64,000 bases of DNA from Escherichia phage WPEC3: the sequence record PV611058. The stretch is one strand, 5' to 3'. The first letter of the stretch is position 1. Each line of letters opens with the position of its first letter. The notes beneath the pieces were generated by a model. The model was given only the letters and a program-made list of their open reading frames with translations, searched no databases and was not told the origin of the DNA. Positions 13,862 through 19,561 of the stretch are shown here, piece by piece. Position numbers and translations under genes: made by a program.

Positions 13862-13889
13862 GTGGAAGAAAAAGGCGGGACGCCTTTTA
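13862..13889 (-). terminator. putative terminator
   Basis: aaaaggcg-gga-cgcctttt hairpin overlapping the stop of 13887-14468, T-rich tract after on minus strand. Confidence 0.4.
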
Positions 13890-14468
13890 AGGTTTGTCCC
13901 ACCCACGATATACAAATTCTATGTGGTATCCTGAATTTAAATAATCCGCATTAACTATGTCAAATTGCATATTTCCAGTACTTGAATCATAAACTGGATT
14001 ACTAAACAGAATAGATAAAATTGCATCAGTACGGCTTGTGTTATTTGACTGTGCAATCATAGTTGAAGAACCAGCAGCAACAATTTGCACTGTGCCTGAT
14101 TCTAAAATAGTCTCATTGCTATTATACGCGATGTAGTCGATGAATACACGACTTTCACTTTCAATAATAACTTCAACACTCTCTTGGTTTTGTGGAATGT
14201 CTACTTCAAATGGACGGTTGATGATTTTGGATACCGTTCTCCACGGTGAGAATTCGGTAATTATTTCCACGTTCTCTTTACCAGAGTTTGGATCAGTTTC
14301 CCATGTACGCCCAGCAACTAAGCTTGCTGGGTCTGATGAGGAAGGTAGGCCGATGAATACACGACCCACATCAGTACTGAATCCTATCTGGCCTTTTTCC
14401 AACGCGTCTGGTAAGTCACGTTGCTTACCAGTTCTTACTTGCTGTAACGCAATTTGTTGTTGTGCCAT
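13887..14468 (-). CDS. hypothetical protein
   Basis: 193-aa ORF. Confidence 0.45.
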   Translation of the reverse strand: MAQQQIALQQVRTGKQRDLPDALEKGQIGFSTDVGRVFIGLPSSSDPASLVAGRTWETDPNSGKENVEIITEFSPWRTVSKIINRPFEVDIPQNQESVEVIIESESRVFIDYIAYNSNETILESGTVQIVAAGSSTMIAQSNNTSRTDAILSILFSNPVYDSSTGNMQFDIVNADYLNSGYHIEFVYRGWDKP

Positions 14469-14496
14469 AAAAACTATCTCCTATAGTATTATAGGA

Positions 14497-15141
14497 TTAT
14501 TTAGCGTTTTCTTTAACTTCAGCAATACGCTCATTGATTAGTTGAGATACAACAGAGCTATCAACGGAAGAAAGAATTGATTCAGGAACTAGGGATTTCA
14601 AGTGTTTTACATAGTTTGCAACACTTTTTAGTTCTTTGGTTTTTAGTGCTTCTTTGATAATATCCAAATCTTCTTTTGAAGCTTCAACACGTTCAATAAC
14701 AACAACGTCTTCTTCTTCAACAACAGGTGCTAGTTCTTCAGCGATTACTTGTACTTCTTCAGATACTTTAATTTGTTCTTCAGTATCTACTACATATGAT
14801 TCGATTACTTCTGGTGCAACATTACGAGATACTTCATCAACACTAATATCTTCAGCAATTTTCTCTTTGATTACTTCTACTGGTTTTGCACCGCGAGATT
14901 TATAATCTTTAATATTAACTAGAAGTTTATTTGAAAGTTGTAGTTTGTCAATTTCTTCATCACTTAGTTTGATTACTTCATCTAAGGAGTAGCCTTTACT
15001 TTCTAGTGCACGAATTGTATATAGGTCTTGTTTCATTTGTTTATGCTGTTCCATTTGATTCAATTTCTCCACGTAAAATATAGTATTGTTCAACTCTACC
15101 AATCCACATATCAACCGCATCCTTGAAGTCTTGTCCTTCAA
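14497..15141 (-). CDS. hypothetical acidic protein (true start probably internal, ~15054)
   Basis: ORF-track start overlaps upstream gene by 100 nt; E/D/V-rich C-terminal half. Confidence 0.4.
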   Translation of the reverse strand: MKDKTSRMRLICGLVELNNTIFYVEKLNQMEQHKQMKQDLYTIRALESKGYSLDEVIKLSDEEIDKLQLSNKLLVNIKDYKSRGAKPVEVIKEKIAEDISVDEVSRNVAPEVIESYVVDTEEQIKVSEEVQVIAEELAPVVEEEDVVVIERVEASKEDLDIIKEALKTKELKSVANYVKHLKSLVPESILSSVDSSVVSQLINERIAEVKENAK

Positions 15142-15760
15142 TAACGAATTCTTGATATTGTAAATTGTTAGGATCTTTTCTTACACAGATGAAAATTACA
15201 CCACGCTCAATATTTGTTCCAAACATTTGATTATGCGATAGTGCATATGCAGCGATTTGCATACGGTAATTTTCGATATGTTCCCATGTCTTTAATTTAC
15301 GGGAATTCTTATAGTCCATGATAGAAGGAATACCATCATGAACTCCAACTAAGTCAGTTGTTCCAGCCCATAATCCTTCATAGAATAATGGAACTTCCTG
15401 ACCCCACACTTCATTGATTCTAGGCCATGCTTCTTCTTGAATTTTGTCAGCCATTCTACGGGCCAGAACTCGTATCGGCATACCACCTTGGTGGTCTGGC
15501 TTTCCATCCAGACGATATTCTAAGTTCTCGTGCATAAAAGTACCAACAGTACATGCTTCTAATGTAATCTCATTAGCTTTCTCTTCACCAACAAATTCTC
15601 TCCATTTTTTCAACCCCTCATTGTCAGAGGTGGCACTAAGAATTGTTGTTACTGACGGCAGATTCCCTGTTGGAGTTGAATAAAGGCGACCTTCGGGGCC
15701 GCCTTCAATTCTTTTGTAATCAACGTATGTATATCTGCTAACAATTGGTGGTGTGTACAT
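15041..15760 (-). CDS. PD-(D/E)xK family nuclease (Cas4/RecB-like)
   Basis: 239 aa; motifs YSTPTG..PSVTTIL, GTTDLVGVHDG.PSIMDYKNS (D...D/E.K core), QIAAY. Confidence 0.55.
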   Translation of the reverse strand: MYTPPIVSRYTYVDYKRIEGGPEGRLYSTPTGNLPSVTTILSATSDNEGLKKWREFVGEEKANEITLEACTVGTFMHENLEYRLDGKPDHQGGMPIRVLARRMADKIQEEAWPRINEVWGQEVPLFYEGLWAGTTDLVGVHDGIPSIMDYKNSRKLKTWEHIENYRMQIAAYALSHNQMFGTNIERGVIFICVRKDPNNLQYQEFVIEGQDFKDAVDMWIGRVEQYYILRGEIESNGTA

Positions 15761-15806
15761 CCGTGTACTCCTAATTATAGCATCGTATTTTTGTTTGTCT
15801 CAGTTT

Positions 15807-16136
15807 TTATTGCTTATTTGCTGCAACAGCAGCTTTTGTTGCCCAATCTTCAACTTGGTCTTCAGAGTTCTGTTCAACTTCACCAGTACTTTCTGAATCA
15901 TTACCAGTAAATGTTACAACATCCGAATTCGCATCTTGCACAAATGGCAAAGAGTTTAGAATATCCATCATAACATTATAAGGAACATCAATGTTGGTTC
16001 GCTTTTTGATTTCAGCGATTAAAGATTGTAGGTTCACTTCTTCGCGACCCGATGATACTAAAGACAACGCAATAGTAGTAATCATATTGCGTATGTCTTT
16101 ACCAGGAGCCTCTTCTGTAAGATCTTGAAATCTCAT
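15807..16136 (-). CDS. hypothetical protein
   Basis: 109-aa ORF. Confidence 0.4.
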   Translation of the reverse strand: MRFQDLTEEAPGKDIRNMITTIALSLVSSGREEVNLQSLIAEIKKRTNIDVPYNVMMDILNSLPFVQDANSDVVTFTGNDSESTGEVEQNSEDQVEDWATKAAVAANKQ

Positions 16137-18673: not shown

Positions 18674-18713
18674 AATTACTCCATATAAAATAAAAAAGAC
18701 CTCTGTCTTGCTT

Positions 18714-18729
18714 TATGATATTTATCACA
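18714..18729 (-). promoter_or_regulatory. late-promoter-like motif (minus-strand tgtgATAAATAtcata)
   Basis: Shares the ATAAATA..ATCATA element found upstream of the capsid gene. Confidence 0.3.
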
Positions 18730-18730
18730 A

Positions 18731-19123
18731 TTAAGAAAAGGTCTGTTTGCTGATGCTAATATTTGTATCATTACCTGTTGTGATAAATTTTGTAATTCTT
18801 TTACCATTTAATTCTGTAGGTAAAACTAATGGTATTCCATTCAAACGCAAATCAACATCCATTGGTATTGCGAATTTGAAAGTACTAAGAGTACATTTAC
18901 CCCATGAAACTGGAAGATTATAGAAAGATGCGTTGTTATCTTTATATAGATCTATTTCAGTTTTTACTACACTTACCATCATGGGATAATCATGTACCAT
19001 AATAGCCTCCAACAACCTCGACAAATTCATAGCACCTGTGAACTTAGAATCGATGATTGTTGGAGTTGTACCATCACCTATATCTACAACAGTATTAATT
19101 GTGTAGAAAGTATATGGTTTCAT
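18731..19123 (-). CDS. hypothetical protein
   Basis: 130-aa ORF. Confidence 0.45.
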   Translation of the reverse strand: MKPYTFYTINTVVDIGDGTTPTIIDSKFTGAMNLSRLLEAIMVHDYPMMVSVVKTEIDLYKDNNASFYNLPVSWGKCTLSTFKFAIPMDVDLRLNGIPLVLPTELNGKRITKFITTGNDTNISISKQTFS

Positions 19124-19317
19124 TCAATATCCTTATTTTTAGTCTCAACAACTTTATATCCAAAGAAATTTGTAGGAGGCATTCTTCGAAGTAATGGGTA
19201 ATTTAATCCAGTACTGACTGATGCTACTGCACCTGCTGATGTTGCACCAGCAGAAGCATTTTCTTTTAGTTTAGTTTTCTTCTTCATATCAATTCCCTTT
19301 ATTACGTTTTTCATCAA
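19120..19317 (-). CDS. hypothetical protein (65 aa)
   Basis: Small ORF, overlapping starts/stops with neighbours. Confidence 0.3.
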   Translation of the reverse strand: MMKNVIKGIDMKKKTKLKENASAGATSAGAVASVSTGLNYPLLRRMPPTNFFGYKVVETKNKDIE

Positions 19318-19561
19318 GTGCTATGTTCTCCAAGCCCTTCTGAAACTTTTTATAATCTCGGTTCTTAATACTAAGAAATAAACGTTTCTTCAAATCTTCA
19401 GCATCAGTTTGGTTAAATTCATCTTCGATACTCTCCAATAAATGAATAACAGAGTTGATTGCATGATCTGCACGATTACCAAAACTCTGTAATGTATCTT
19501 TCTCTGGTGTATAGTCAACTATACTATCAAGTAGATTCTTTTTATTGGATTTACTAGACAT
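19289..19561 (-). CDS. hypothetical protein (90 aa)
   Basis: Small ORF immediately downstream of helicase gene. Confidence 0.35.
   Translation of the reverse strand: MSSKSNKKNLLDSIVDYTPEKDTLQSFGNRADHAINSVIHLLESIEDEFNQTDAEDLKKRLFLSIKNRDYKKFQKGLENIALDEKRNKGN

Follow-up and report, generated by a model that had tools for sequence, protein, structure and literature searches.

The window analysed here, a 64,000-nt stretch of the genome of Escherichia phage WPEC3 (PV611058), carries eleven open reading frames (ORFs), all on the minus strand, that fill the space between nrdA (nt 11502-13820) and the gene for a DnaB-type helicase (nt 19565-21085). They are labelled O1 (nt 13887-14468) to O11 (nt 19289-19561), and the intergenic gaps between them measure -14 to 57 nt. 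The block is a vertically inherited core array of the Rak2-like jumbo myophages, a group with genomes of about 350 kb to which the phage in the window belongs. One of its products, O10, is by sequence a free-standing homolog of the predicted maturation junction and N-terminal arm (N-arm) of the major capsid protein (MCP) encoded elsewhere in the same window. The best explanation of the data as a whole, and one that we consider probable, combines a core array in three transcription units, virion and late proteins among its products, and an O10 module that copies part of the MCP. A first-pass annotation had correctly seen eleven small same-strand ORFs between nrdA and the helicase gene (nt 13887-19561) but took them for an accessory block without recognisable homologs in a T4-like genome; the genome, that of a Rak2-like jumbo phage, is T4-like only distantly, in its T4-type head module.

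Conservation of the array

At the nucleotide level (megablast), the nearest record to the block (nt 13887-19561) is Escherichia phage WPEC5 (99.7% identity), followed by BF17, fEgEco12 and five other records (98.8-99.4%) and by the Asteriusvirus phages 121Q and PBECO4 (about 83.6%). At least 80% of the block is covered in 35 phage records. All eleven ORFs match PHROG families, with E-values from 6.5e-32 to 1.1e-157, and seven of the matched families are labelled 'virion structural protein'. The block is colinear, gene for gene, with the corresponding regions of 121Q, phAPEC6, RaK2, GAP32, CBB, fHe-Yen9-04, Hallingskeid and XaC1. In the eight-genome ortholog set used throughout (the window, 121Q, RaK2, GAP32, CBB, fHe-Yen9-04, Hallingskeid and XaC1), every ORF has an ortholog, in the same order, in the seven genomes beyond the window (BLASTP identities of 37-99%). 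These eight genomes represent at least six lineages, namely the genera Asteriusvirus, Alcyoneusvirus, Mimasvirus and Eneladusvirus together with the unclassified Hallingskeid and XaC1. Differences in content are limited to two insertions, a Hef homing endonuclease gene between O6 and O5 in RaK2 (L006, nt 8859-10592) and one ORF after O11 in XaC1. Searches with tblastn found O8, O5 and O10 in 72 Rak2-like phage records each (for O8, all records were Rak2-like) and O11 in 86 records. Ordered orthologs are thus present in all genera, as in a core gene set of Rak2-like jumbo phages, and the patchy occurrence, turnover and relaxed or diversifying selection of a variable block were not found.

Ratios of non-synonymous to synonymous substitution (dN/dS; Nei-Gojobori, window versus 121Q) lie between 0.007 and 0.10 for the eleven ORFs, compared with 0.055 for the helicase, 0.036 for the primase and 0.030 for nrdA. 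Such values mark all eleven as real, strongly constrained genes. The proteins are small and acidic and lack Pfam domains, features that would suit the first-pass view of an accessory block whose genes evolve fast and serve host takeover or anti-defence. Pfam and NCBIfam gave no match at the curated cut-off for any block ORF, and E <0.001 was reached solely by O3; this near-empty result presumably lies behind the impression that homologs were absent. Such a block is nevertheless very improbable here. More than 70 genomes, and distant uncultured relatives too, have the locus in colinear form, it is under strong purifying selection with dN/dS values like that of the helicase, and its gene content is fixed except for the RaK2 homing endonuclease and the extra XaC1 ORF; the authors of the CBB study, moreover, place the early host-takeover genes elsewhere (CBB_390-546). 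The first-pass annotation had named two tests that could refute it. Sensitive homology searches, the first of these, placed every ORF in a conserved family, and gene order, the second, proved essentially invariant across more than 70 related genomes. Nothing in the analysis points to host takeover or anti-defence. As first written, the finding is mostly refuted, with its guess at virion proteins partly borne out (see below).

More distant forms of the array were found on metagenomic contigs (L014-L019) that were reached via a profile search with the O10 module, and the comparison also took in Pseudomonas phage Callisto (L022), a PA5oct-like phage. On the 20 kb contig L015, homologs of six primase-side window genes are followed, in window order throughout, by primase and helicase. 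Beyond the helicase lies the homolog of O11 (E = 2e-11), then a 391-aa gene and a gene for a 701-aa LysM protein ending in the O10 module, and the contig continues with three small genes, O7 (E = 1e-6), O6 (E = 1.4e-7), a 911-aa O5-containing protein and the O3 nuclease. Parts of this pattern recur on L014 and L016. On the evidence of these gene orders, the array predates the Rak2-like group. The helicase-O11 pair is also present in Callisto (O11, E = 4.6e-18); beyond this pair no conservation of the array was seen in Callisto, and the coordinates examined in the PA5oct record are not colinear with the array. The L015 helicase (nt 5179-7022) was called in two pieces, of 432 and 164 aa, with a weak Pfam match to Hom_end_hint, and may contain an intein or be split.

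O10 and the major capsid protein

O10 (nt 19120-19287, minus strand; phrog_17311; dN/dS 0.10) is a protein of 55 aa with the sequence MKKKTKLKE/NASAGATSAGAVASV...PLLRRMPPTNFFGYK, where the slash follows a cleavage-like Glu. The continuation after this Glu can also be given as NASAGATSAGAVASVSTGLNYPLLRRMPPTNFFGYK, and the protein includes the peptide NASAGATSAGAVASVSTGLNYPLLR. The gene for the gp23-family MCP lies at nt 49437-50612 (minus strand; Pfam Gp23, E = 9.5e-90), and the segment that O10 copies corresponds to MCP residues 36-74 (nt 50391-50507, minus strand; ...RKLMLNE/SATSGATTAGNIATLNKVILPIMRRVMPT), with O10 residues 7-39 aligning with MCP residues 40-72. The Smith-Waterman score of the pair is 73, compared with 27.8 ± 4.3 for shuffled sequences (maximum 49; none of 2000 shuffles reached 73). 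When O10 was compared with all window ORFs of at least 40 aa in six frames, the MCP alone stood out (73; next best 35). BLASTP with compositional adjustment gave E = 3e-7, and in an all-against-all BLASTP of 83 window genes O10 and the MCP formed the top intragenomic pair, the MCP being the only significant match of O10. Alignment by hhalign of 15 O10 homologs with the N-termini of five MCPs (window, CBB, Muenster, PA5oct and Atu_ph07) returned a probability of 96.5% (E = 1e-9). No O10-to-MCP matches were returned by tblastn or phmmer, where a 32-bit match is below reach owing to the low-complexity filter and the size of the database.

With a T4 gp23 sequence whose numbering fits Met98 and L106 of PMC9546572, residues 40-72 of the window MCP correspond roughly to gp23 residues 63-104. 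By the same alignment, the start of the MCP segment is presumably the maturation cleavage site (LTE/A in T4, LNE/S here). In T4, gp23 up to L106 is disordered and inward-pointing and is thought to touch the core in unexpanded heads, and upon expansion this region becomes the N-arm and N-fist (PMC9546572). In keeping with cleavage, the RaK2 MCP migrates at less than its predicted mass. O10 aligns with the part of gp23 that is internal and core-facing before expansion, but it ends in FFGYK and a charged tail instead of continuing into the shell domain. Its match is to MCP residues 36-74 only, outside the HK97-fold shell domain that characterises the Gp23 family (PF07068), and because it is without the HK97-fold body O10 is not a capsid protein. 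The O10 core is 73-86% identical between genera in which O1, O2 and O8 show 45-55% identity.

The resemblance could in principle be a case of compositional convergence, or O10 could be functionless, the decaying remains of a once larger gene. In favour are the high content of Ala, Ser, Gly and Thr in the module, the failure of mass spectrometry (MS) to show O10, and the presence in distant relatives of a protein of 259-826 aa in the same slot, so that O10 could be the leftover of a cargo loss. We regard either version as quite unlikely. The similarity outlasts both composition-preserving shuffles (0/2000) and compositional score adjustment, and it reaches the non-repetitive P(L/I)(L/M)RR(M/V)xP part of the module; O10 is also retained in 72 Rak2-like records, with a low dN/dS and a well-conserved core.

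Distribution of the O10 module

When 1.84 billion representative proteins were searched exhaustively with a profile of the O10 module, 50 matches at E ≤1e-3 were obtained. Besides small O10-like ORFs, the complete module was found as the last ~50 residues of mutually unrelated proteins of 145-826 aa (referred to below as tagged proteins); it is N-terminal in one protein, which has a ParB-like motif, and internal in another. The module consensus runs from [LIV]xE through xASxGxTSxGx(I/V)ASV to P(L/M)I(R/K)R(M)P and is completed by two aromatic residues and a basic tail. In 15 of the 15 aligned tags [LIV]xE stands immediately before xASxGxTSxG, with the Glu invariant, and most tags end in poly-Lys/Arg. 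The same [LIV]xE precedes the motif in all aligned O10 orthologs and MCPs, and hhalign comparison of the tags with the MCP N-terminus gave 96.3% probability (E = 1.8e-9). The carriers of the module match no PHROG family beyond that of O10 itself, save for a LysM/transglycosylase-like stretch in one, and tblastn found no relatives of the tagged proteins P0398 and P0388 in isolated phages. On L014, L015 and L016 a tagged protein occupies the slot of O10 in the array, and on L018 and L019 the module is found in other contexts. Extra ORFs of RaK2 and XaC1 between O11 and O10 were considered as counterparts of the cargo genes of L014 and L015 and found to be unrelated to them.

Contig L019, which comes from a related lineage and whose DNA polymerase is 38-45% identical to that of the window, carries a gene for the anti-CBASS protein Acb1 (nt 11776-12330) a few kilobases from a gene for a protein with an internal O10-type module. 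In Callisto (L022), nt 14789-15415 encode a 208-aa protein ending ...DESSFMASAAISGVVTPLGEIKRRHKKPKKPGPKPKK, which by eye looks like a degenerate O10-type tag and which the hidden Markov model of O10 did not detect. A reading of QSFF/NFFGY as a clamp-binding peptide was rejected, because Rak2-like O10 lacks the Gln and the peptide does not match the consensus of clamp-binding motifs.

Transcription signals and units

Five copies of GAGACA-N15-17-TATAAT stand on the window's minus strand (nt 15774-15801, 22197-22224, 32299-32326, 41297-41324 and 59629-59656), compared with 0.05 expected, and the fuller form of the motif is (T)GAGACA-N15-17-(TG)nTATAAT. Two of the promoter-like copies, both with a spacer of 16 nt, stand upstream of O3 (nt 15774-15801) and before the primase gene (nt 22197-22224), and 121Q, phAPEC6 and fEgEco12 have both of them at the matching places. 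The CBB paper describes a 'divergent RpoD-like' promoter class concentrated in the replication region, and a late motif, ATAAATA, before structural genes. The window motif resembles the 'divergent RpoD-like' promoters of CBB and GAP32 but differs in its -35 word, and it is probably the middle or replication-gene promoter class of the phage.

There are 14 copies of ATAAATA on the minus strand of the window, and exactly four are located 48-54 nt before a start codon. In the form (T)ATAAATA, these precede the genes for the MCP (nt 50657-50664), the scaffold (nt 51866-51873), a virion protein encoded at nt 22223-23200 (site at nt 23242-23248) and O8 (nt 18719-18725). The last of them, 52 nt before the O8 start, lies inside a terminator-like hairpin with a U-run that follows O9 (nt 18691-18744, minus strand; minimum free energy (MFE) of -16.6 kcal/mol, z = -3.1). 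In the O9-O8 spacer the hairpin, the T-run and the GATAAATA within it are conserved in all eight genomes. Another terminator-like hairpin, AAGGCG-UCC-CGCCUU with a U-run (nt 13867-13886, minus strand), is found between O1 and nrdA; it is the first element of the MFE structure of a 65-nt stretch that as a whole folds no better than shuffled sequences (z = -0.6). The exact T4 late promoter, TATAAATA, is absent from the block, and it is the shorter ATAAATA that is informative.

The arrangement of these signals suggests three transcription units. The first, primase-helicase-O11-O10-O9, has the primase gene (nt 21112-22167, minus strand) and the helicase gene as its upstream part and would run from the replication-region promoter to the conserved terminator after O9. 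The second, O8-O7-O6-O5-O4, would start at the T4-late-type ATAAATA inside that terminator hairpin, and its genes look late-expressed. The third, O3-O2-O1, would have a replication-type promoter of its own.

Virion association

Several products of the array have been found in virions by MS. Virions of RaK2 contained gp135 (O5; 7 peptides, 36% coverage) and gp139 (O1; 5 peptides, 32%) (PMC3622015 Table S3), those of CBB contained CBB_298 (O5; 10 peptides), CBB_294 (O9; 4), CBB_299 (O4; 2) and CBB_292 (O11; 1) (PMC5259590 Table 4), and those of phAPEC6 contained gp179c (O1; 2 peptides) and gp182c (O4; 1) (PMC7247149). Among the block proteins found in the virions of two genera, O5 has the most peptides (7 and 10). 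The suggestion made from the sequence at first pass, that some of the ORFs specify virion proteins, agrees with these reports for O1, O4, O5, O9 and O11 and with the late-type promoter before O8-O4. Bubblegram imaging has revealed an inner body in the heads of phAPEC6 and 121Q (PMC7247149), and the products of the O8-O4 unit, with O9 and O10, are reasonable candidates for its proteins. They provide a short, testable list.

Alternatively, the array may be mainly a replication and recombination module, in which O11 is a helicase partner, O3 a nuclease, and O2, O6 and O7 bind DNA, the virion detections then representing DNA-bound proteins that were co-packaged or co-purified with the 350 kb DNA. 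Its location between primase-helicase and nrdA, behind a promoter class of the replication region, is what such a module would show, and no part of the array is conserved more widely than the helicase-O11 pair (dN/dS of O11, 0.007). The MS lists of RaK2 and phAPEC6 also include SSB, a RecA-like protein and topoisomerase II, as well as the prohead protease, and weak detections such as that of O11 are therefore not trustworthy; O2, O3, O6 and O10 have never been detected in virions. We think it rather unlikely, all the same, that replication is the main business of the array. For O5 as for O1, detection extends to two genera (5-10 peptides in RaK2 and CBB; 2 for O1 in phAPEC6), and O1 has a tail-fibre-anchor fold. 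A late promoter of the capsid-gene type precedes O8 in all eight genomes, and what O10 copies is a segment of the capsid protein and of no replication protein.

A number of points weigh against the preferred account, that of a core array in three units with virion and late proteins and an MCP-like module. The promoter, terminator and unit assignments are motif-based. Some 'virion' detections may be carry-over, given the SSB, RecA-like protein, topoisomerase and protease in the same data; those of O11 and O4 consist of only 1-2 peptides, and O9 and O1, both detected by MS, belong to units 1 and 3, behind replication-type promoters. O10 is reported in no virion proteome, its 5-kDa peptide being one that gel-based MS probably misses, and the Ala, Ser and Gly content of its module somewhat inflates the similarity scores. 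Profile searches against PDB sequences gave no significant match for O1, O2, O5, O6 or O9. O5, which is named 'prohead core scaffold protein' in fEgEco12, was rejected as a scaffold homolog, with an hhalign probability of 0.2% against the phage's own scaffold; coiled-coil architecture is all that it shares with a scaffold of the T4 gp22 type. Lastly, an N-terminal [LIVM]xE at residues 6-9 is conserved in O4, O5 and O10 (in O4 as [LI]-T-E in the ortholog alignment), but an N-terminal [LI]xE is present in 19 of the 83 window genes. At this background the motif alone gives no support for a T4-style leader on O4 or O5, and such leaders were dropped as evidence.

Proteins of the array

O1 (nt 13887-14468, minus strand; 193 aa), a virion protein, has an Mtd_N-like N-terminus followed by a beta-sandwich. 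It is a tail or baseplate protein with a fold like that of a tail-fibre anchor domain: it is structurally similar to solved tail-fibre and tailspike anchor domains, its score against Pfam Mtd_N is 14.7 bits (cut-off 26.3), and one distant homolog, P0140, carries PF18454. O1 shares its Mtd_N-like N-terminal motif and its presence in virions with the anchors of Klebsiella phage KP1 gp9 and Kp9 gp42, but at 193 aa it has no receptor-binding or enzymatic domain, and identity is only 5-6%. The name 'hyaluronidase' given to O1 in fEgEco12 was set aside, there being no catalytic domain to support it. O2 (nt 14497-15054, minus strand; 185 aa; phrog_15452, E = 1.9e-73), with orthologs in all eight genomes, has conserved N-terminal (about 60 aa) and helical C-terminal domains joined by an acidic linker; profile searches found no relative in the PDB, and it is among the proteins not detected in virions.

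The ORF that the first-pass annotation described as a Cas4/RecB-like nuclease, O3 (nt 15041-15760, minus strand; 239 aa; phrog_298, E = 3.5e-62), does specify a PD-(D/E)xK protein of the RecB family, but not a Cas4. Its match to PDDEXK_1 (E = 3.8e-4; 20.9 bits) is just below the cut-off of 22, and its closest PDB relative is MGME1 (E = 0.02, residues 34-226). Identity is 77-92% across genera and 44% to the distant homolog on L015, and the motifs TTDLVG...IMDYKNSRK and Q(I/L)AAYA are invariant in the eight orthologs. O3 has the D...(D/E)xK core and QxxxY of the RecB-family nucleases (MGME1, Cas4, the AddB nuclease domain) and aligns with MGME1 over nearly its full length. Unlike Cas4, it is without a four-cysteine Fe-S cluster, having two Cys only (C70 and C192), and it scores 23.8 bits against TIGR00372, which has a cut-off of 65. 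O3 is a predicted RecB-family, MGME1-like exonuclease for recombination or replication.

Among the products of unit 2, O4 (nt 15807-16136, minus strand; 109 aa; phrog_15050, E = 4e-62) is a small, acidic, virion-associated protein. O5 (nt 16153-16785, minus strand; 210 aa; phrog_14154, E = 1.2e-68) is modelled by AlphaFold2 (predicted local distance difference test score, 69) as a long antiparallel coiled-coil hairpin (helices at residues 13-112), followed by an acidic linker that is disordered (113-165) and a small alpha/beta domain at the C-terminus (168-209). A Foldseek search with this fold returned generic coiled coils only (E >0.4), and both conserved parts of O5 are contained in the 911-aa protein of L015 (E = 5e-11). 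O6 (nt 16819-17496, minus strand; 225 aa; phrog_16179, E = 2.6e-104) combines a variable N-terminal half with a conserved C-terminal domain; it has homologs at the matching position on L014, L015 and L016 (E = 6e-7 to 8e-10) and does not appear in the published virion MS lists. O7 (nt 17493-17711, minus strand; 72 aa; phrog_16215, E = 7.2e-36), a small conserved protein, has homologs of 75-76 aa in the equivalent position on L014-L016; RefSeq calls it 'virion structural' and the fEgEco12 annotation 'transcription regulator'. O8 (nt 17711-18673, minus strand; 320 aa; phrog_14883, E = 1.1e-157), the first gene behind the late-type promoter, has a conserved N-terminal domain, a Gln-rich middle and an acidic C-terminal part. 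The RefSeq labels of O7 and O8 presumably derive from GAP32 data.

O9 (nt 18731-19123, minus strand; 130 aa; phrog_14976, E = 3.4e-77) is 58-89% identical across genera, and its homolog on L017 (E = 6e-7) follows a tagged protein. O11 (nt 19289-19561, minus strand; 90 aa; phrog_11854, E = 2.2e-44) is helical and extremely conserved. It is separated from the helicase gene by a 3-nt gap and is translationally coupled to it, and homologs directly follow the helicase in Callisto and on L014 and L015. O11 is most likely a helicase-coupled accessory protein. A more distant match was found in Salicola SCTP-2 (E = 2e-5). In a metagenomic relative, an ENA contig of 3775 bp, P0333 is a 145-aa fusion of O11 and O10 (corresponding to nt 19120-19561 of the window). 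This single case arises by a 1-nt shift at GAA AAA C/GTA, upstream of which the O10 frame is already open; it may reflect an error in the assembly, or it may hint that the tag is joined to O11 by frameshifting.

Other features of the window

The true start codons of O2 (nt 15054), O5 (nt 16785) and O10 (nt 19287) are downstream of the longest-ORF starts, as determined from the PHROG alignment, the annotation of 121Q and fEgEco12, and the ortholog alignments. Repeats within the block amount to short matches at chance level. The T4-type head module includes the portal gene (nt 53775-55511), a prohead protease gene of the T4 gp21 type (nt 51885-52505, minus strand; Pfam Peptidase_S77, E = 8e-21; phrog_207, E = 4.1e-57) and, adjoining it, the scaffold gene (nt 50703-51818), whose product has 24 [LI]xE sites. 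Between portal and protease, two minus-strand genes encode a very acidic protein of 277 aa (nt 52537-53370) and a protein of 76 aa (nt 53471-53701), in the position of T4 genes 67 and 68. Both have an N-terminal [LI]xE, and they are likely prohead core components. Directly downstream of the MCP gene is a gene for a 365-aa HNH/homing-type endonuclease (nt 48195-49292, minus strand; phrog_681, E = 2.6e-77; phrog_559). Beside nrdA, nt 10683-11456 (minus strand) encode a 257-aa protein with tandem units of about 24 residues, (R)YQ(K/T)(L/M)(T/P)xDF(I/L)x(D/E)KW; the annotation of its CBB ortholog notes similarity to Bacillus phage G gp559. Two neighbouring genes on the plus strand, nt 37854-38453 and 38469-39158, form a paralogous pair (34% identity over 93 aa, E = 8.5e-5) that sits in an otherwise almost wholly minus-strand region.

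Proposed function and comparison with known systems

The block as first described is ordinary, being conserved, already annotated and partly characterised by proteomics. What the present analysis adds is an operon structure for the block, the fold of O1, a corrected family for the nuclease and deep synteny, and chiefly the relationship between O10 and the MCP and the spread of the O10 sequence as a terminal module. Late timing, an internal location, cleavage and a targeting function are what we infer beyond this. The products of unit 2, with their coiled-coil, acidic and Gln-rich regions, would be made late, packaged in the virion, and serve as head-internal or core components. The O10 module would act as a prohead-incorporation tag that copies the core-binding arm of the MCP. 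Since the counterpart of the module in the T4 capsid protein faces inward and probably contacts the core, a protein that carries it would be co-assembled into proheads, where the S77 prohead protease may then cut the module after [LIV]xE. The elements of such a tag would be, in order, the protease site, the copy of the core-binding N-arm, the aromatic pair and a basic, DNA-binding tail. It would mostly be placed at the C-terminus of its cargo, including LysM and glycine-zipper proteins of 600-826 aa, and the O10 of Rak2-like phages would be a tag without cargo. That the module is a portable, MCP-derived prohead tag by which a wide clade of T4-related large phages loads cargo, and that O10 and O8-O4 form part of the inner body, we put forward only as a tentative proposal, with the odds against it.

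The inner body of phages phiKZ and SPN3US offers one comparison. Bubblegram inner bodies are also seen in 121Q and phAPEC6, and both groups have large jumbo-phage heads with many internal proteins processed by protease. The prohead protease family of phiKZ and SPN3US differs, however, from that of the Rak2-like phages, and so does the cleavage site. The site of the phiKZ protease is S/A/G-x-E. No sequence similarity between the phiKZ inner-body proteins and those of phAPEC6 has been reported (PMC7247149).

Another parallel is the capsid targeting sequence (CTS) of the T4 internal proteins (IPI-III, Alt). Both systems have a prohead protease of the Peptidase_S77 family and a site of the L/I-x-E type followed by a small residue, and the shared idea is that non-shell proteins are brought into the prohead core by a short signal that can be removed. 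The T4 CTS is a 10-residue N-terminal leader, MKTYQEFIAE, that is unlike the capsid protein, whereas the module described here is about 45 residues long, is a homolog of the capsid protein, has a basic tail and is mostly C-terminal, with cleavage and packaging as predictions. If real, the tag would explain how internal and ejected proteins are loaded into large heads of the T4 type and, like the T4 CTS, could be used to package foreign proteins.

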